Source: a virus
Lineage: Duplodnaviria > Heunggongvirae > Uroviricota > Caudoviricetes
Direction: 5' to 3' (one strand)
Length of the DNA: 64,000 nt
IMG/VR virus record: IMGVR_UViG_3300045988_003495
The position numbers and the translations under genes are program-made. Within the stretch, counting starts at the first letter, position 1. Each line of letters begins with the position of its first letter. Shown one piece after another: positions 3,919 through 63,882 of the stretch. Under the pieces are notes generated by a model. It was not told where the DNA came from, searched no databases, and saw only the letters and a program-made list of their open reading frames with translations.

Positions 3919-4248
3919 TTAATCTGCCAACCTTAAATTAAAATTAACACCAAATTTTTCACATACTTCCAACATATACTCAAGGGAAACATTACCAGTG
4001 AGGTGGATTATGTTGGATACACGAGCTTGAGAGATGCCACAAATTTTAGCAACTTGCTCTTGAGAAAGACCTCTGGATTTAATCTCTCTCTTAAAACGAT
4101 GTGCAACGAAGTCTCTCATTTCGTCTACATCCATTGGACAAATATAACTCTCCATTTCAGCCTCTCTATCAGCCTCCCAATCATCTTGTGGAGCATAAGG
4201 GTCAAAAGCTTCATTCATCTTTCTTCTTCCGTTTGCGTGAAGTGTCAA
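3919..4248 (-). CDS. helix-turn-helix DNA-binding protein (XRE-like)
   Basis: C-terminal LSQEQVAKICGISQARVSNI resembles Cro/C1-type HTH. Confidence 0.5.
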   Translation of the reverse strand: MTLHANGRRKMNEAFDPYAPQDDWEADREAEMESYICPMDVDEMRDFVAHRFKREIKSRGLSQEQVAKICGISQARVSNIIHLTGNVSLEYMLEVCEKFGVNFNLRLAD

Positions 4249-11896: not shown

Positions 11897-12123
11897 ACAT
11901 TACTGCAAAAAATTATAAAAAGCAAGTTGACAATGCACTTGACAAGGTGTTAATCTTTGCGAAGTGGGTTTTTACTTAAAAGGTTACTTAACAGTTTAAC
12001 TATACAGATACTTTAAAACTCTTAAAAGATTATTTAATAGCTTTTAAAAAGCTTTAAAGTATAACGTATAGAATACGTTAAGATAAAAGATTAAAACTTA
12101 ATAGTTACTTAAAAGAGGCTTAC

Positions 12124-42273: not shown

Positions 42274-43059
42274 ATGGGTATTGTAAAAATCATCAAAGGT
42301 GATATCTTTGACGCCTTTGATAAAGGTAAGTTTGACATCATTGGTCATGGTTGTAACTGTATGAATTTAATGGGTGCAGGTATTGCAGCAACTATTTCTA
42401 AGCGTTATCCAAAAGTGTATGATACTGACACAGAAGTTTACCTGTTTGCAGGTGGCATTCGTCACAAACCCTGTGAAAATTTACTAGGTAATTTCTCTGT
42501 AGCACGTTTAAAACAAGGCCGTATAGCTAACCTTTACACCCAACTTCATACTGGTAAAGATGCCCGATACAGTGCTTTAGAGTCATCCTTGAAACAGCTT
42601 AACAGATACTGTGAAGTTAACCAGTTGAAGAAAGTTGGTCTACCTATGATTGGTGCAGGTATCGGTGGACTTGACCCTCAAGCTGTCACAGTTATCATTA
42701 ATCAGGTGATGAAGAGTGTAGATGTTTATCTGTATGTCTATGAAGCAAAAATGTATAATGAGTTACACTCAGGTTGGAAAAACTACTGTGAACCAGAATA
42801 CTTTGCAGGTGTAGTTGTGTTCACAGATAACGCAGTTACCCTCTTCAGACGAAGAAAAGGTAAGATACATCAAAGTAACCCTCCGGTTGAAAAGATGTCT
42901 CTAAGTAACGCTCTAGTTACCCACCTGTCGAAGAGCAATCACAGAATTGCAGTAACATTTGGCAGTGATGCAGATGCTTATATCTATGCAAGAACTGATG
43001 AGGATATTGAGTTAATCCTCTCTTCACCAGAACTTACCTTCTTAGACGCAAAGAACTAA
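42274..43059 (+). CDS. macro-domain protein (ADP-ribose binding/processing)
   Basis: N-terminal GDIFDAF...DIIGHGCNCMNLMGAGIAATI resembles the macro-domain glycine-rich ADP-ribose pocket. Confidence 0.5.
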   Translation: MGIVKIIKGDIFDAFDKGKFDIIGHGCNCMNLMGAGIAATISKRYPKVYDTDTEVYLFAGGIRHKPCENLLGNFSVARLKQGRIANLYTQLHTGKDARYSALESSLKQLNRYCEVNQLKKVGLPMIGAGIGGLDPQAVTVIINQVMKSVDVYLYVYEAKMYNELHSGWKNYCEPEYFAGVVVFTDNAVTLFRRRKGKIHQSNPPVEKMSLSNALVTHLSKSNHRIAVTFGSDADAYIYARTDEDIELILSSPELTFLDAKN

Positions 43060-43107
43060 GAAACTTCGTAGTATATTCACAATAGACTAAGCCTTTCTTA
43101 TCTGGTA

Positions 43108-43326
43108 AATTTTTCAGGTAAGGAGGGCTTTTTCATTTCAGATTTGTGCAGGTAGAGTTCTGTAGAGAAATCTATAGAGAAAATTTTGAACTCCAAAGAG
43201 AAAATTCATTTTCAAACTGTGCAGGTAATCTCCAAAGGGTTTTTTCATTTTCAAAACGTGCAGAGAAAAATCAGGTCGGGCAAGAAAAATCATTTTAGAA
43301 TTGTGCAGGTAGGTGGGGGTAGGTGG
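43108..43326. repeat. array of four to five direct repeats CATTTTCA-RAWY-TGTGCAGGTA plus tandem ggtaggtggg
   Basis: copies near 43131, 43205, 43245, 43288; ggtaggtggg x2 at 43307-43326. Confidence 0.6.
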
Positions 43327-43488
43327 GACTGTCGCCATTTCTCACAAGGCTACCACATCTGAAAATAAAAGTCAACAGAAAAATTTGTAGCGGATTGAAA
43401 AATAATTCTTGATTGTAGTTCTGTTTTGTGGTAGTCGCGCGCACCCGTTTCATTACAATTTTTGCAAAAAATATTTTTAAAAATTTTC

Positions 43489-43517
43489 TTGACTCTTTGA
43501 ACTGGGTTATCTAATAT
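43489..43517 (+). promoter_or_regulatory. sigma70-type promoter (TTGACT-N17-TAATAT)
   Basis: -35 at 43489-43494, -10 at 43512-43517; upstream of first gene of the small-gene array. Confidence 0.55.
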
Positions 43518-43569
43518 TTGCATCAGACGGGGCGACAAGCTCAACAACCTTAAACTAGGAGATTCAAAA

Positions 43570-43953
43570 ATGGCATATCGTGCACCTAAATTCATCAACA
43601 AAGACAACTTTCGCAACGCACTGGAGAAGTCACTTGATGAAAATTTTAAAGGTAACATTATCGTTGTTCACGCATTCAATTTTAAGTATGATGTAAACGG
43701 GAATAGAATCAACCATTACACGGCAACCATGTTAGATGGTACACTTTCAAGTGAAAAAGCCGTACTAAATGCACTGGCAGGACGTGGAAAGGTATTAGTA
43801 AGATGTGATAAGAGACGTTATCAGGGCGGTGCATATGGTTATGATGATGCTGTTTACCATCTTGAAAATATGGGCTATCAAGTAGAAAAAGCTGGAGCAT
43901 CACAAATCATCGGCAGTGATGGTTATGTAACTATCTTCAAAATTAACAAATAA
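43570..43953 (+). CDS. hypothetical early protein
   Basis: 127 aa; RBS taggag; ends in the conserved KINK* that starts the repeat cassette. Confidence 0.45.
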   Translation: MAYRAPKFINKDNFRNALEKSLDENFKGNIIVVHAFNFKYDVNGNRINHYTATMLDGTLSSEKAVLNALAGRGKVLVRCDKRRYQGGAYGYDDAVYHLENMGYQVEKAGASQIIGSDGYVTIFKINK

Positions 43954-44039
43954 AGTACTTTACAAGGGGCTTATAGTTCGATAAAGTAAGCCCCAGATAA
44001 AGAGCTTTACTACTCAATCCTAAATTGGAGAACTTAAAA
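43954..44039 (+). repeat. intergenic cassette type I (hairpin ggggctta...taagcccc plus conserved leader and RBS)
   Basis: hairpin 43966-43994; near-identical copies at 46196-46280 and 47330-47414. Confidence 0.6.
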
Positions 44040-49228: not shown

Positions 49229-49570
49229 TCTATTGAATCCTTATACAATCCCTTTCCTTTCCTTTCCAGAATCTTACTAGACCTTAAAAGCAATAACTCT
49301 ATAGTCTACTCTATAACCTCTTATCAAATCAACTTAAATATAAGCCCATAACCCGAAAGGGAAGGGCAACCGTTTAAACGCTCTATAAAGCTCTATAACA
49401 GCCTTATCAACCTAACTTAAGGGATTGCATTAACTCACCCTTAAAAGCCCTTTATAAAGCTTCTCAGAGACTTAAAAGAATCTTATAAGGGTGTAAGCTT
49501 TATCGTCTCGTTAGTTATCTTGTGAATATCTAAAAAGGGCTTGTTAGTGTCTTAAAAGTATGTTATAGGG

Positions 49571-49636
49571 GCTATAAAGTTACGTAAAAGAGGCTATAAA
49601 GTTACGTAAAAGAGGCTATAAAGTTACGTAAATACT
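49571..49636. repeat. 22-bp tandem direct repeat, three copies
   Basis: gctataaagttacgtaaaagag x2 then gctataaagttacgtaaatact. Confidence 0.85.
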
Positions 49637-49689
49637 AGCCCCCTTAACATTCTCTTAACAATTTCTTAACAATCCCTACATAGTTATGC

Positions 49690-50230
49690 TTTTAAGGCAC
49701 TTGTTAGCAACTTGTTAGCCCCTTGTTAAATCTCTGTTAAGACCACGTAAAAGCCTTGTAAGAGTCTTTGACATAGCCTTAAAAGCTCCTGTAAAGCCCT
49801 ATAAAGAGCTATCTGTACAGTTGGGGTGTAACTACTAGGAAGAGACTTAAAAGGGGCTATACAGAGCTATAGAGAGCTTTTAAGAGGTATGTTTAAGGAA
49901 TCACTAAGAAAGGAAAGGGAACGATAAGAAAAGAGATAGTGACCATGTTAATAGCTTGTTAAAAAGATTAAACACTTGTTAGAGACTTGTTAATTATCTT
50001 AACAAAATAACTCTTAAAAATTAACTTGTTAGCTCTTGTTAGTCATCTGTTAAGAGACTATAAAGACCATGTATCGACTGTTAAGAACTTGTTACAACCT
50101 TGTTAGTTCTGTTAAGAGTCTGTTAAGACCTCTGAAGAGATGTTAAGAAGGTGTAAGGACTGTTAAGAGATTGTTAAGGATATTTTAAAATTTTGCAAAG
50201 TACTTGTAAGGGAGCTGTTAAGGGCTACCA
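49690..50230. repeat. dense iteron array of short motif YTGTTARG with about 10-11 bp periodicity
   Basis: more than 20 copies, e.g. cttgttag, ctgttaag, cttgttaa between 49690-49745 and 49935-50225; no ORF of 60 aa or more on either strand. Confidence 0.8.
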
Positions 50231-50369
50231 AGCAGATATACACCCTAATCAGATATTTTTCAGTTCCTTCAAAGACCCTAAAAAATGACTTGACAGTCTT
50301 ATTTTATAAAAATTTTAAAATTCTGAATAATTACCTAGACAGTCTTTTAAAAATACAGGTAGAAACAGG

Positions 50370-50700
50370 CTTATAAGATACCTTGTTAATACCGTGTTAG
50401 ACCTTGTGAGATAAGGTCTGTAAAGATATTCCTGTTAAGTTTGTTAAAACAGTCTATATAGAGGCTTAGTAACACCTAGTGAACACCTATAGAGAGTGTC
50501 ATAGCTTACATAGAGATTAAGAGGTGTATAGGAGCTTCTAAGAGTGTGTAGAGAGATGGTTAAGATGATTGTATAGGTTGTTTAGAAGGCTTGTTAGAAG
50601 AGTGTTTAGATGGCTATTTAGAAGGGCTATACAGAGGGCTATTAAGACCACTAGATAGTTACTAAGATACTATATAGTACTATATAACTATATAGAGAGT
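50370..50700. repeat. second iteron block (GTTAG/TTTAGAAGG motifs) ending in AT-rich tatatag repeats
   Basis: cttgttaataccgtgttag..., gtttagaagg/cttgttagaag/gtgtttagatgg/ctatttagaagg, then tactatatagtactatataactatatag. Confidence 0.6.
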
Positions 50701-60783: not shown

Positions 60784-60860
60784 CTCTGTTTAGCTCAGCT
60801 TGGTAGAGCGTTCCGTTTGGGGCGGTAAGGCCGGAGGTTCAATTCCTCCAACAGAGACCA
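60784..60860 (+). tRNA. tRNA-Pro (anticodon TGG)
   Basis: acceptor ctctgtt/aacagag, D-stem gctc/gagc, T-arm ggagg-ttcaatt-cctcc, encoded CCA. Confidence 0.7.
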
Positions 60861-60867
60861 AATTAAT

Positions 60868-60945
60868 GTTCCAGTAGACAAAATGGTATAGTCACCACTC
60901 TTTCAAAGTGGATATTTGAGGGTTCAAATCCCTTCTGGAACGCCA
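60868..60945 (+). tRNA. tRNA-Glu (anticodon TTC)
   Basis: acceptor gttccag/ctggaac, anticodon stem ccact/agtgg with loop ctttcaa, T-loop ttcaaat, CCA. Confidence 0.7.
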
Positions 60946-60950
60946 GTTTT

Positions 60951-61027
60951 GACAGAAGACCAATTACAGCAAACTTAATCTTATTCATCTGAAGGTAAAT
61001 CGGACAAAGAAGAGATTTGGTCTGGTC
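60951..61027 (+). ncRNA. Y-RNA-like structured element A
   Basis: 5' motif gaCAGAAGACCaattACAGCAAac pairs with 3' motif tTTGGTCTGGt (agaccaa/ttggtct) enclosing about 55 nt. Confidence 0.45.
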
Positions 61028-61036
61028 ATTAAGAAT

Positions 61037-61113
61037 TGCGGGTATAGAGAAAGGGCGTCTCACATGTCTCATTAGCATGGTATCGGCAGGTTCGACTCCT
61101 GCACCCGCCTCCA
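61037..61113 (+). tRNA. tRNA with CAT anticodon (Met or Ile2 type)
   Basis: anticodon stem catgt/gcatg, loop ctcatta, D-stem gaga/tctc, T-arm gcagg-ttcgact-cctgc, CCA; 5' end ambiguous by 1 nt (possible 1:72 mismatch). Confidence 0.6.
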
Positions 61114-61116
61114 AAT

Positions 61117-61180
61117 TTACAGAAGACCGTATGCAGCAACAAACTACTTTTTGCGGATAAAAGAAAAAACACGGTCTGGC
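61117..61180 (+). ncRNA. Y-RNA-like structured element B
   Basis: 5' tACAGAAGACCGTatgCAGCAAcaaac pairs with 3' aacACGGTCTGGc. Confidence 0.45.
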
Positions 61181-61190
61181 AATGTATTAA

Positions 61191-61267
61191 GGTTAGGAAG
61201 CACATAAGGTATGTGCGGTCGCCTGTTAAGCGAATGGCACAGGGTTCGAATCCCTGACTAACCGCCA
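61191..61267 (+). tRNA. tRNA-Asn (anticodon GTT)
   Basis: acceptor ggttagg/actaacc, D-stem gcac/gtgc, anticodon loop ctgttaa, T-arm caggg-ttcgaat-ccctg, CCA. Confidence 0.7.
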
Positions 61268-61276
61268 AATTTAAAT

Positions 61277-61364
61277 GTGTCGTTATCCCGTAGATGGTAG
61301 CGGTGGGGACTGTAAATCCCTTGTCATTGAGACTCGGTAGGTTCGACTCCTACACGGCACACCA
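61277..61364 (+). tRNA. tRNA-Tyr (anticodon GTA), long variable arm
   Basis: acceptor gtgtcgt/acggcac, anticodon stem gggga/tccct, loop ctgtaaa, 15-nt variable arm, T-arm gtagg-ttcgact-cctac, CCA. Confidence 0.7.
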
Positions 61365-61386
61365 ACACTTAGCGAGATACTTAGTT

Positions 61387-61788
61387 ATGAGAGATGAAGT
61401 ATACAAATCACAACTTGGTATGAGTTTGGGAACTGCACAAAACAGACTAGTAAAAGATTTGCTATTCGATTTTATATGTAAGACAAATCAAAATAGATGT
61501 TTTCAGTGCGGAAAAGAAATGACTAGGGATGATTTCTCTATCGAGCATAAGACTCCGTGGAGACACAAAGATAATGCAAAAGAACTTTTCTTTTCACTAG
61601 ATAACATTTCTTATAGCCACCTGCGTTGCAACATGAAAGCAGCCAGACCAGCACAGATTTATGATAGAAAGCCTAAGCCAATTAAACACGGCACTGCACA
61701 CAGCTACTCTAAAGGTTGCAGATGTGATGAGTGTAGGCTGGCTAAGAATGCTGAGGGTAGGAAGCACTATAACCCCAGAAAGGCGTAG
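61387..61788 (+). CDS. HNH endonuclease inside the tRNA cluster
   Basis: CFQCGKEMTRDDFSIEHKTPW ... CRCDEC; ORF-track start 61294 overlaps tRNA-Tyr, so ATG at 61387 preferred. Confidence 0.55.
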   Translation: MRDEVYKSQLGMSLGTAQNRLVKDLLFDFICKTNQNRCFQCGKEMTRDDFSIEHKTPWRHKDNAKELFFSLDNISYSHLRCNMKAARPAQIYDRKPKPIKHGTAHSYSKGCRCDECRLAKNAEGRKHYNPRKA

Positions 61789-61820
61789 GAAGAAGTATTT
61801 AAGAAATGGCACATAGTTTT

Positions 61821-61896
61821 GGGGTATTAGTTTAGACGGTGAAAATACGGGATTATCTCTCCTGAGCCGCGAGTTCGATTCTCACATACCTCGCCA
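61821..61896 (+). tRNA. tRNA of undetermined identity (anticodon loop ttatctc, nominal anticodon ATC)
   Basis: good acceptor ggggtat/atacctc, D-stem gttt/aaat, T-arm gcgag-ttcgatt-ctcac, CCA; anticodon loop has pyrimidine at position 37 and A at 34. Confidence 0.5.
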
Positions 61897-61954
61897 ATTT
61901 TGAGAGGGCTATTTAGCCCCTCCCTTAAAGAGTTCTTACGAGTATCCTTTAAAG

Positions 61955-62034
61955 GAGCAGAAGACCAAATACAGCAAGTTACTTAAAATTTCAAGCCAAT
62001 TCAATTTTGAAAAATTTAAAACTTGGTCTGGCTC
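61955..62034 (+). ncRNA. Y-RNA-like structured element C
   Basis: 5' gCAGAAGACCaaatACAGCAAg pairs with 3' aaCTTGGTCTGGc. Confidence 0.45.
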
Positions 62035-62042
62035 AACAAATT

Positions 62043-62177
62043 TACAGAAGACCGTTTACAGCAAAACTTAAACAATCTATTTCTCGGTAAAGAAAAGGCG
62101 AAGGTTCGATTCCTTCACTCGGCAGATGTCGAGTTGGTGTAATGGTAGCACTTAAGATGATAAACAACGGTCTGGTA
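62043..62177 (+). ncRNA. Y-RNA-like element D with embedded circularly permuted tRNA-like module (YrlA-like)
   Basis: terminal helix agaccgtt (62047-54) with aacggtct (62165-72); inside: T-arm gaagg-ttcgatt-ccttc (62100-62116), acceptor-like helix actcggc-agat-gtcgagt closed by 4-nt loop (62117-62134), D-arm gtgt-aatggta-gcac (62137-62151); no anticodon arm. Confidence 0.55.
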
Positions 62178-62278
62178 ATTATCTTTGCAGTAGCTTATGT
62201 GGCTAATTATGTCGTCCCATGAGTGCCGATGAATTTCCTTAGCATGATTCTAGATTAGCTTAGTAGGAAATGACTCTA

Positions 62279-62299
62279 CAGACCCTTTAGCAAGGTCTG
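62279..62299 (+). ncRNA. minimal hairpin sharing the CAGACC...GCAA...GGTCTG motif
   Basis: cagacc-ctttagcaa-ggtctg. Confidence 0.3.
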
Positions 62300-62326
62300 C
62301 GTAGGTTACTGCAAAGGCAATTTAAT

Positions 62327-62402
62327 GGAAGTGTAGCAGAATGGTGATGCGGCAGACTTTTAATCTGACAGGCGATGGGTTCGAATCCCTCCACTTCTAC
62401 CA
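62327..62402 (+). tRNA. tRNA-Lys (anticodon TTT), tentative
   Basis: acceptor ggaagtg/cacttct, anticodon stem caga/tctg, loop cttttaa, T-loop ttcgaat, CCA; T-stem and D-stem weak. Confidence 0.55.
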
Positions 62403-62406
62403 AAAT

Positions 62407-62483
62407 GGTTCAGTCGCAGATAAGGTAATGCAGGGGTCTCATAAGCCCTATGAATGTGGGTTCGATTCCCATCTGAACCTCCA
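62407..62483 (+). tRNA. tRNA with CAT anticodon (Met/Ile2/initiator type)
   Basis: acceptor ggttcag/ctgaacc, anticodon stem ggggt/gccct, loop ctcataa, T-arm gtggg-ttcgatt-cccat, CCA. Confidence 0.65.
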
Positions 62484-62485
62484 AT

Positions 62486-62560
62486 TGTGGGTTAGCATAA
62501 ATGGTAATGCAAACGGCTGATAACCGTTAGAAGAGGGTTCGATACCCTCACCTACAACCA
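62486..62560 (+). tRNA. tRNA-Ile (anticodon GAT)
   Basis: acceptor tgtgggt/acctaca, D-stem gcat/atgc, anticodon stem aacgg/ccgtt, loop ctgataa, T-arm gaggg-ttcgata-ccctc, CCA. Confidence 0.8.
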
Positions 62561-62575
62561 ATTTCAATAAAGTTG

Positions 62576-62604
62576 TTGACATTGATACGTGACTACTTTA
62601 TAGT
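62576..62604 (+). promoter_or_regulatory. internal sigma70-type promoter (TTGACA-N17-TATAGT)
   Basis: -35 at 62576-62581, -10 at 62599-62604. Confidence 0.55.
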
Positions 62605-62808
62605 AACCTTAGTTTTCGTTGCGTAGCGTCTATTTTGCAAATTTAAAATAAATGCAAACGACAATGTTTTTCTGGCAGTAGCTTGATAGGCTAAACACCA
62701 GTGAGGTCTTCCAATCCCTCATCAAAGAATTTGGCGTACTAGCCCACGGTATGATTAATAAGGTGGGCATCTTTAAGGGCTTTCTAAGAGAGTCTTTAAA
62801 GATAATTA

Positions 62809-62890
62809 CGGGGCGTATCTCAGCTGTCTTCTAAACAGCCGTTAACCGAGTAAGTGGAGTATGCGGGTTCGAGTCCTGCCGCCTCGACCA
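62809..62890 (+). tRNA. tRNA-like gene, possibly tRNA-Arg (anticodon TCT), atypical
   Basis: canonical anticodon arm gctgt-cttctaa-acagc, T-arm gcggg-ttcgagt-cctgc, acceptor cggggcg/cgcctcg, CCA; only 7 nt where D-arm should be, and about 23 nt between anticodon arm and T-arm. Confidence 0.35.
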
Positions 62891-63033
62891 ATTTAGTTAG
62901 CAGATTACTTAGACGACCTAAGCGGGTCTTCCTGTAGGGAGGTGGTCTGTATCTCATGTTTTCCAGAACATGTAAATAATCTGAGAAGGGGCTTTACAGT
63001 GTTGCGAAAATACGGTAAGCTTCGAATTATAGT

Positions 63034-63116
63034 GTGGGACGATGTTAAGACTCTAAGGCATGAGCAACGGCCTCCAAAACCGTTTCAAAGGGGTTCAACT
63101 CCTCCGTCCCATGCCA
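63034..63116 (+). tRNA. tRNA-like gene, possibly tRNA-Trp (anticodon CCA), atypical length
   Basis: acceptor gtgggac/gtcccat, anticodon stem aacgg/ccgtt with loop containing cca, T-loop ttcaact, CCA; D-region 6 nt too long. Confidence 0.35.
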
Positions 63117-63129
63117 AAGTCTTATTAGG

Positions 63130-63217
63130 GGTAGGTAGCGGCTAATGGCAGCCAAACAGTCTTGAAAACTGTTGCCACTGTAGAGATACGGTGAGGGTTC
63201 GACTCCTTTACTTACCG
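63130..63217 (+). tRNA. tRNA-Ser (anticodon TGA), class II, CCA not encoded
   Basis: acceptor ggtaggt/acttacc, anticodon stem acagt/actgt, loop cttgaaa, 20-nt variable arm, T-arm gaggg-ttcgact-ccttt. Confidence 0.6.
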
Positions 63218-63375
63218 CCTAATAAGATTTAAAGCCAAGCTTCATTCGGATGTTGCTTTGGTATCCCTCGTGTATTGTCGTACACGCACAGTAAAGCACC
63301 TAGTAGGTGTCACGGAGAAGAGATAATATCAAGCTCTCCAAAGGTTCTAGTCACCGGATTAAACAAGACTATGCA

Positions 63376-63396
63376 AAGACCAAATTAGGTCTTTTT
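63376..63396 (+). terminator. hairpin plus T-run inside the tRNA cluster
   Basis: aagacc-aaatta-ggtctt followed by ttt. Confidence 0.4.
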
Positions 63397-63475
63397 AGAG
63401 GGCTTCTAAGGTTATTACAGCTTGTTGTGGAACCTTGTTGCTTAGGTTCTTAGAAGTTCTCTAAAAAGATTTAAT

Positions 63476-63553
63476 GGGAGATTGACGGTAATTGGTAAAC
63501 CTACCATCCTTAGAAGTTGGTGTTTGAGGGTTCGAATCCCTTGTCTCCTACCA
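63476..63553 (+). tRNA. tRNA-like gene, anticodon arm ambiguous (possibly TAG)
   Basis: acceptor gggagat/gtctcct, T-arm gaggg-ttcgaat-ccctt, CCA; D and anticodon arms pair poorly. Confidence 0.35.
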
Positions 63554-63560
63554 AATTAAT

Positions 63561-63636
63561 GCAGGTGTAGCAAAATGGTTATGCGGCTGACTCTTAATCA
63601 GTAAGACGATGGGTTCAATTCCCTCCACCTGTACCA
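63561..63636 (+). tRNA. tRNA-Lys-like paralog (anticodon CTT), tentative
   Basis: acceptor gcaggtg/cacctgt, anticodon stem gctga/tcagt, loop ctcttaa, T-loop ttcaatt, CCA; close paralog of 62327..62402. Confidence 0.5.
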
Positions 63637-63642
63637 AACATT

Positions 63643-63718
63643 GGGGATGTAGTTTACATGGTTAAAACATAAGTTTTGCAAACTTAAGTACAGGGTTCAA
63701 TTCCCTGCTTCTCCACCA
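63643..63718 (+). tRNA. tRNA-Ala (anticodon TGC)
   Basis: G3:U70 pair in acceptor (ggggatg/cttctcc), D-stem gttt/aaac, anticodon stem taagt/actta, loop tttgcaa, T-arm caggg-ttcaatt-ccctg, CCA. Confidence 0.8.
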
Positions 63719-63724
63719 ATTAGT

Positions 63725-63799
63725 GCATCCATAGTTTAAACGGGAAAATTACAGTCTTCCAAACTGAGGTTGAGGGTTCGATTCCCTCTGGATGCTCCA
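63725..63799 (+). tRNA. tRNA-Gly (anticodon TCC)
   Basis: acceptor gcatcca/tggatgc, anticodon loop cttccaa, T-arm gaggg-ttcgatt-ccctc, CCA. Confidence 0.75.
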
Positions 63800-63806
63800 A
63801 ATTAAT

Positions 63807-63882
63807 GCTCCTATCGTATAATTGGCTATTACGGTTGCCTTGTAAGCAACTTATCAGGGTTCGAATCCTTGTGGGAGCACCA
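63807..63882 (+). tRNA. tRNA-Thr (anticodon TGT)
   Basis: acceptor gctccta/tgggagc, anticodon stem gttgc/gcaac, loop cttgtaa, T-arm caggg-ttcgaat-ccttg, CCA. Confidence 0.8.

Follow-up and report, generated by a model that had tools for sequence, protein, structure and literature searches.

The array locus and its flanking genes

We analyzed a 64,000-nucleotide stretch of viral DNA (IMG/VR record IMGVR_UViG_3300045988_003495; hereafter, the window), the source genome of which is a Felixounavirus of the Felix O1 type (Ounavirinae) with a G+C content of 39%. Between the macro-domain 'phosphatase' gene and the first small early gene lies an intergenic gap of 510 bp (43060-43569) that houses an array of direct repeats (Table 1). 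The 800 bp around this array matched 289 phage records, nearly all of them from Felix O1-like myoviruses (Ounavirinae), and the record closest to the array locus was that of Felixounavirus LF110P4 (97%). The gene to the right of the gap opens a run of small genes, each of which has its own promoter. We found no conserved ORF in the gap, in agreement with an earlier note made from the nucleotide letters alone, which had seen no convincing ORF in the region of about 500 bp between the macro-domain gene and the first promoter. The genes neighboring the array contain no DNA-binding Pfam domain, and the downstream genes encode small proteins without known function, with no toxin gene following the array in the Pfam and PHROG analyses.

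Table 1. Coordinates of the features in and around the intergenic gap of the window.
Feature	Position	Strand	Remarks
Macro-domain 'phosphatase' gene	42274-43059	+	Left of the gap; equivalent to Felix01p025
Rho-independent terminator of the macro-domain gene (Felix O1 t13)	43089-43138	+	Hairpin, T tail
Repeat unit 1	43116-43154	+	AGGTAAGGAGGGCTTTTTCATTTCAGATTTGTGCAGGTA; 21.8 bits
Long spacer	43155-43188	+	Contains a degenerate remnant of a further unit (GAAATCTATAGAGAAAATT)
Repeat unit 2	43189-43227	+	AACTCCAAAGAGAAAATTCATTTTCAAACTGTGCAGGTA; 25.0 bits
Repeat unit 3	43228-43266	+	ATCTCCAAAGGGTTTTTTCATTTTCAAAACGTGCAGAGA; 23.3 bits
Repeat unit 4	43273-43311	+	AGGTCGGGCAAGAAAAATCATTTTAGAATTGTGCAGGTA; 22.5 bits
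G-run patch, GGTAGGTGGG twice	43308-43327	+	Directly after the array
Conserved block	43409-43444	+	Possible weak promoter TTGATT-17 nt-TAGTCG, then CGCGCGCAC island (sequence, alignment)
AT-rich tract	43448-43487		Most AT-rich 40-mer of the 64-kb window, 90% A+T
Sigma-70-type promoter of gene 43570-43953	43489-43517	+	TTGACT-17 nt-TAATAT (promoter scan)
First small early gene	43570-43953	+	Right of the gap

The stem of the upstream terminator (43089-43130) consists of 17 pairs with an 8-nt loop and is followed by a T-rich tail, and this hairpin was kept in the centroid RNA fold. The terminator is annotated likewise in Felix O1 (t13), Barry and AYO145A, and the Felix O1 genome paper lists t13 with a dG of -21.8 kcal/mol. 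Unit 1 of the array shares sequence with the 3' arm and the T tail. This 3' arm is invariant, whereas the 5' arm of Mooglevirus and Suspvirus differs by compensatory changes. Given that the invariant arm is the one shared with unit 1 and that the other arm compensates, the DNA is under a constraint that goes beyond the formation of the hairpin.

Copies of the repeat and anatomy of the unit

The core of the repeat, TCATTTYNRAWHYGTGCAG, occurs four times without mismatches, at 43133, 43206, 43245 and 43290, always on the plus strand and with a core-to-core spacing of 73/39/45. The copies were found both by a repeat finder and by a degenerate pattern, and the two agreed. In shuffles of the 64-kb window, 0.16 matches to the core are expected by chance with two mismatches allowed. 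The earlier note had described four to five repeats near 43131, 43205, 43245 and 43288 (spacing 74/40/43). Four exist, at slightly corrected coordinates, but the supposed fifth copy (AAATTTTTCAGGTAAGG, 43107-43123) was rejected, being the loop and 3' arm of the terminator. The tandem GGTAGGTGGG pair reported after the repeats is present, whereas the description of the repeat as a 20-mer had to be revised, the unit being about 39 bp long.

We derived a 39-nt profile from 49 units of 12 lineages, the window's own units included. With this profile the four units of the window scored 21.8-25.0 bits (E <= 2e-5), and the next best site in the window and the remaining 21 kb of a close relative (about 86 kb) scored 7 bits. 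A genome-wide motif search, as suggested in the earlier note, led to this one locus, and no further copy was detected elsewhere in the window or in the 21 kb of the relative. A loose-pattern scan of IMG/VR yielded, among the matches listed, mostly chance single hits. We also considered a general phage promoter or operator motif and rejected it, since the motif occurs at one locus only.

When anchored on GTGC, the 49 units aligned gap-free in a 39-nt register, with peaks of information content at positions 3-8 (RG.C..G), 18-22 (TCATT) and 31-35 (GTGCA). In other words, the first block is followed 15 nt on by TCATT and another 13 nt on by GTGCA. TCATT and GTGCA are invariant inside the units and the N positions vary; the first block has lineage variants (GGCAC, GTCAC, GTCGG, CTCCA and GGGAA). 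The segments between the blocks are A/T-rich, and some of them switch between A5 and T5 among copies. The units are asymmetric, and no inverted repeats or dyad symmetry were found within them. Units of one array are 60-90% alike, and the spacers between them are variable: across lineages the unit-to-unit spacing ranges from 35 to 91 bp, so that the intervening spacer measures from about 0 to about 50 bp, and a long first gap of 73-91 bp is common to several lineages. The spacings of 35-55 bp are not multiples of the helical turn and drift by 2-4 bp among lineages. In the alignment of the repeat family, the position of the long spacer of the window is occupied by an intact unit in Erwinia phages (Kolesnikvirus). 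Their spacing of 37/37/39 corresponds to the 73 split in two, suggesting that the long gap of the window holds a decayed unit.

Downstream context and its variants

In every lineage the array, which lacks a promoter of its own, stands in the same setting: an intrinsic terminator precedes it by at most about 100 bp, and it is followed in turn by a G-run or C-run patch, an island of the CGCGCAC type, an AT-rich tract and sigma-70 promoters that read onward. Equivalents of the G-run patch occur in Felix O1, Mooglevirus, Kolesnikvirus, Pectobacterium phage Wc4 and the uncultured relative L185. The window, Wc4 and L185 have a G-rich version of this patch; the version of Felix O1, Mooglevirus, Suspvirus and Kolesnikvirus is C-rich. 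A relaxed G-tract pattern had only three matches in the 64 kb. The CGCGCAC-type island also follows the arrays of Wc4 and L185. The candidate promoter in the block before this island was not reported by the promoter scan. The AT-rich tract lies 135 bp from the array, before the first strong early promoter, for which it could equally be an UP element.

The segment that follows the array (43308-43360) is polymorphic. The window and a few relatives carry the two GGTAGGTGGG copies and then unrelated sequence, and Felix O1 (positions 1750-1830 or so of its locus, L009) and most genera carry a C-run tract of 45-60 nt (CCCCTCTCCCCCTCTTACTCCCCCTCCCCCC). Read on the minus strand, this tract would make a strong G-quadruplex motif, which is unusual at 39% G+C. 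The natural variant LF110P2 keeps all four units but has a deletion that fuses the C-run tract with the 5'-UTR of the second small gene, and with it the first gene, both promoters and the AT-rich tract are gone. As LF110P2 could nevertheless be isolated as a phage, this right half of the module is dispensable.

Gene cassettes turn over at a shared 5'-UTR (CTTAAACTAGGAGATTCAAAAATG, 43546-43572; loci L002, L178 and L180), where most relatives have an extra 207-bp gene like Felix01p030 that is missing from the window. At 43959-43995, and in other intergenic cassettes among the small genes, the promoter-like TTTACA-17 nt-TAAAGT lies inside a terminator-like hairpin (GGGGCTTA...TAAGCCCC), so that, judging from this arrangement, each cassette could serve both to terminate one transcript and to initiate another. 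These cassettes appear in the Felix O1 genome paper as 57-bp direct repeats.

Distribution among phages

Arrays of 3-6 copies in constant orientation, which is always that of the flanking genes, were found in 12 lineages of the Ounavirinae, including phages of Erwinia and Pectobacterium and uncultured relatives. We also scanned 45 IMG/VR loci with genes for proteins related to the macro-domain protein. The motif was present in all 29 Ounavirinae loci (plus strand, directly after the macro-domain gene, 3-4 copies) and absent from the 16 unrelated macro-domain loci; analogous arrays were likewise sought beside the macro-domain genes of these unrelated phages (L159-L174), and none was seen. In GenBank there were 289 matches to the array against 309 to the macro-domain gene, so that nearly every Ounavirinae record has the array at the corresponding site. 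The two counts are equal for records named as Escherichia, Shigella, Citrobacter, 'Felixounavirus' and 'Enterobacteria' phages, and among the Salmonella phage records 78 have the array and 80 the macro-domain gene.

The spacing is 73/39/45 in Felixounavirus and 75/41/45 in most Mooglevirus and Suspvirus loci; a finno-type allele has 75/45, and 73/39/43 was also seen. In the Erwinia phages, the repeat zone is the sole part of the gap that blastn detects. Six distant lineages, reached via protein search, carry 4-6 copies: Wc4 and the uncultured L182, L185, L189, L190 and L191. Their macro-domain proteins are 32-45% identical, and in three of the six the array lies 2-2.7 kb further downstream, past a few small genes. 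In L182, L185 and L190, small genes flank the array on both sides.

Selection and coding potential

We compared the four 18-nt cores with the third codon positions of the adjacent macro-domain gene. Against Mooglevirus and Suspvirus, the cores are identical at 62 of 72 positions (86%), whereas the third codon positions are 56-57% identical; against Kolesnikvirus, the values are 49 of 72 (68%) and 45%. These comparisons indicate that the array is under purifying selection across the Ounavirinae.

The earlier note had named two minus-strand ORFs (43138-43338 and 43350-43658) whose translation would make the repeats coding. The first, of 66 aa, is open in the window, similar ORFs are annotated in Mordin (gp014) and Sl26, and PHROG gave a weak match to phrog_15689 (E = 3e-4). 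However, this match has no significant aligned stretch, and the frame is not kept: the ORF is split or frame-shifted in L147, L151, L153 and the Erwinia phages. The repeat spacing changes among lineages by non-multiples of three and therefore argues that the array is not coding. The second ORF spans the junction with an extra gene cassette of about 290 bp in most relatives. Since no frame is conserved and no real family match was found in PHROG or Pfam, we rejected coding on either strand. GenBank records contain several small ORFs in the array or the gap (Sl26 CDS0100-0102, Mordin gp014 and UAB_Phi87 ORFs 48-50), which are very probably artefacts, judging from frames that are unconserved across lineages.

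RNA structure, promoters and host sites

Across the array region, only the terminator folds stably. No conserved RNA fold of the array was detected (RNAalifold, -10.7 kcal/mol, with an unfavorable covariation term of +0.55), the minus-strand fold was no better than those of shuffles (z = +0.9), and a candidate GCAC/GUGC stem present in some lineages is not kept in others. The Rfam search returned nothing at E < 0.1, and ToxI was not among the hits. No sigma-70 or sigma-54 promoters were found inside the units. We also searched for the consensus patterns of the host factors DnaA, IHF, CRP, Fis and ArcA; they do not account for the motif, and there is no DnaA-box cluster at the array. Mimicry of host or plasmid DNA was rejected, as a blastn search of 5,426 E. 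coli genomes gave no match and plasmids gave chance hits only.

Genome end and other regions of the window

In Felix O1-like phages the genome ends are short direct repeats; for UAB_Phi87, a terminal repeat of 608 bp has been determined experimentally (PMC4837284). The homologue of this repeat in the window lies at 49646-50231 (86% identity), which places the array 6.3 kb inside the right terminal repeat. We therefore rejected a genome terminus or packaging site as an explanation of the array, given that the terminal repeat maps elsewhere and its motif (YTGTTAAG) differs. The region of the terminal repeat (49646-50231, flanks 49400-50500) contains about two dozen YTGTTAAG/CTTGTTA motifs, many of them at an exact 11-bp spacing, with inverted copies at the left boundary, and the genes on either side are transcribed toward it. 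The TGTTA direct repeats at 11-bp phase resemble ArcA boxes.

Further along the window, the position equivalent to that of a gene of Sl26 (L176, 14628-16043) is at about 59-60.7 kb, just upstream of a tRNA cluster (60784-63882). Relatives annotate this gene, next to tRNA genes, as encoding a 471-aa 'RNA-binding protein' or vWFA protein. The PhageMaP paper compares gp130 of Bas63 with Ro60. Should gp130 be this gene, the combination of a Ro60-like protein with an adjacent tRNA cluster would hint at a Y-RNA-like partner nearby.

Possible function of the array

The position of the array after a strong terminator, and its lack of a promoter, make it likely that the element works as DNA and has to be kept clear of transcription. 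The unique locus, the co-orientation, the rigid units with flexible spacing, the selection and the insulation together point to putative protein docking once per unit, and a rigid unit combined with variable spacers is what would be expected if a single rigid surface of the protein contacted each unit. We propose that the array may be a conserved cis-acting protein-binding DNA element composed of asymmetric, iteron-like putative sites of about 39 bp, and we give this proposal an even chance. The earlier note had read the repeats as operator or iteron sites for a phage regulator. That reading stands in part, in that the repeats are non-coding, unique, co-oriented, under selection and built of rigid units, but the unit is not 20 bp long and the array is not a general operator of the small-gene array, because the motif is absent from the other promoters there.

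On this proposal, each unit would offer three contact patches (RG.C..G, TCATT and GTGCA) at fixed distances, with A/T tracts between them, and would be occupied by one protomer of a putative DNA-binding protein, most likely encoded by the phage, in the same orientation on every unit. The protomers might jointly form a nucleoprotein complex on 190 bp of DNA, which the strong upstream terminator would shield from incoming transcription. Such a complex would sit at the head of the early small-gene block, beside the G/C patch, the AT-rich 40-mer and the first early promoters. A protein loading platform built of repeats of similar length is known from the F plasmid, where sopC consists of tandem 43-bp repeats bound by SopB, each nearly identical and containing an inverted repeat. 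Both systems are tandem direct repeats of about 40 bp; however, the units of the array are asymmetric and less alike, and no ParA- or ParB-type gene is annotated in the virulent Felix O1-type phage.

With the neighboring AT-rich tract and promoters, the module most resembles an origin or replication-control region, and a replication origin or replication-control site is the role that we tentatively prefer, although we rate it as less likely than not. Like the iteron origins of lambda (ori), P1 (oriR) and iteron plasmids, the array consists of several co-oriented direct repeats (four in the window and 3-6 in the 12 lineages) at a single non-coding conserved locus, and the AT-rich tract nearby is a candidate unwinding element. 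However, classical iterons are 17-22 bp long with a spacing of about 22 bp, whereas the units of the array are about twice as long, at 39 bp, and unphased, with a spacing of 35-91 bp. In addition, no initiator gene was found among the few proteins scanned with Pfam, there were no DnaA or IHF sites, and the AT-rich tract, 135 bp away, is dispensable in LF110P2. The length by itself has a precedent in initiator-binding sites of about 39 bp, the 39-mer regulatory sites of V. cholerae chromosome II (PMC3401445).

The replication machinery also speaks against an origin role. The primase-helicase is T7 gp4-like, with Toprim and DnaB_C domains (Pfam), and no Rep- or O-type initiator was found among the few proteins that were scanned with Pfam (3.5-6.4, 12-19 and 41.5-46 kb). 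Origins of the T7 type need promoters, not iterons. The GC skew shows no change across the array site. Taken together, the T7-like replisome, the lack of an initiator among the scanned proteins, the unphased spacing, the flat GC skew and the LF110P2 deletion count against the origin role. On a 100-bp scale, the A+T content of the window is highest (82%) at about 12000-12110. Here the minus-strand DNA polymerase genes and the primase-helicase operon on the plus strand diverge, and the cumulative GC skew reaches its minimum. Judged by these features, this region near 12.0 kb is an alternative candidate for an origin or for early divergent promoters.

Control or insulation of the first early promoters is a close second role, although we regard it as unlikely. 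Here, the array would be an operator or insulator through which a phage regulator represses or activates the first early promoters P1 and P2 (100-200 bp downstream), or a roadblock between the long upstream operon and the early block; this version, too, we consider unlikely. The array always lies directly upstream of sigma-70 promoters of the same direction, the terminator and the array would insulate twice, and the phage encodes at least one HTH_3 regulator. This is a 109-aa protein (3919-4248, minus strand) with a Cro/C1-type HTH_3 domain (E = 6e-10), the only DNA-binding domain among the Pfam-scanned proteins (3.5-6.4, 12-19 and 41.5-46 kb). However, Cro/C1-type HTH proteins usually bind short dyad-symmetric operators that, in the case of Cro and CI, overlap the promoter, whereas the units lack the dyad symmetry that a dimer of this type usually needs and lie 100-350 bp upstream of the promoters. 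Moreover, the many other promoters of the small-gene array lack the motif, and LF110P2 retains the array though its would-be target promoters are deleted.

We also considered that the array acts as RNA, within a read-through transcript or an unmapped one. It might, for example, sequester a host RNA-binding protein or RNase as a decoy, or yield a repeat RNA that, like a type III antitoxin, is directed against abortive-infection toxins. Type III antitoxin arrays (ToxI, AntiQ and the 'pseudo-ToxI' of phages) are tandem same-sense repeats of about 35-47 nt, ToxI having 5.5 repeats of 36 nt, and they occur in phages of enterobacteria, including those of Pectobacterium and Erwinia. The units of about 35-49 nt in 3-6 tandem same-sense copies resemble them, but solely in unit length and copy number; the units are neither identical (60-90% alike) nor contiguous, with variable spacers, and there is no upstream promoter, downstream terminator or toxin gene. 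The resemblance of GTGCAGNTAG to the ToxI sequence is at chance level (about 0.4 matches expected by our own estimate). RT-PCR in the Felix O1 paper detected a transcript of 'ORF14', which by its numbering (ORF13-ORF15) possibly lies in the gap; 'ORF14' is absent from the current record. Against an RNA-level role, the array lies behind the strong terminator t13 without a promoter of its own and has no conserved fold, no Rfam family and no similarity to E. coli genomes or plasmids. We therefore find an RNA-level role improbable.

A further possibility is a pause signal for DNA entry, such as the iss of T5, with the array as the inner border of a terminal, first-entering early segment of about 7 kb (8%). 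The distance from the array to the genome end is about 6.9 kb, or about 8% of the virion DNA of about 86.7 kb, and the genes of the segment are all small, have sigma-70 promoters of their own and are read toward the end; the block is of similar size in Mordin (7.4 kb) and phiEa21-4 (7.0 kb). The T5 iss, located at 7.9% of its genome, is also conserved, untranslated, rich in repeats and cis-acting, and it too bounds a terminal block of small early genes on the inner side. However, it lies inside a 10-kb terminal repeat and contains inverted repeats, palindromes and eight DnaA boxes, whereas the array lies outside the 608-bp terminal repeat and has direct repeats only. In addition, the block has no large A1-like gene, small genes occur on both sides of the array in L182, L185 and L190, and we found no report of two-step transfer in the literature on Felix O1-like phages (Ounavirinae). 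We thus regard a pause signal as very improbable; it would mean, with as little likelihood, that the array halts or paces genome entry after a terminal segment of small host-takeover genes and that Felix O1-type phages infect in two steps with a signal unrelated in sequence to that of T5. Equally far-fetched is that the array has no function of its own, being decayed tandem duplications of the terminator tail, which unit 1 overlaps, or that it encodes a small minus-strand repeat protein (LHxLKMxF, ORF 43138-43338), since conservation exceeds the neutral expectation and the array persists where macro-domain proteins are only 32-45% identical.

Significance for the Ounavirinae

The array is a real, strongly conserved and previously unannotated cis-element of the Ounavirinae. 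In the literature we found no description of the array, of an origin in the Ounavirinae or of transcriptome maps, and the PhageMaP study of Bas63 gives no report on the intergenic region of the array. The Felix O1 genome paper of 2010 lists only repeats of at least 24 bp and states that the control of temporal transcription is unknown.

Felix O1 and its relatives are classic diagnostic phages that are now used in therapy and biocontrol. The array accounts for several spurious small ORFs in public records, and it gives a precise target of 190 bp that is conserved above third codon positions and unique in the genome. Thus, we suggest that it can serve as a marker sequence for the whole subfamily and that genome engineers should leave the site intact.
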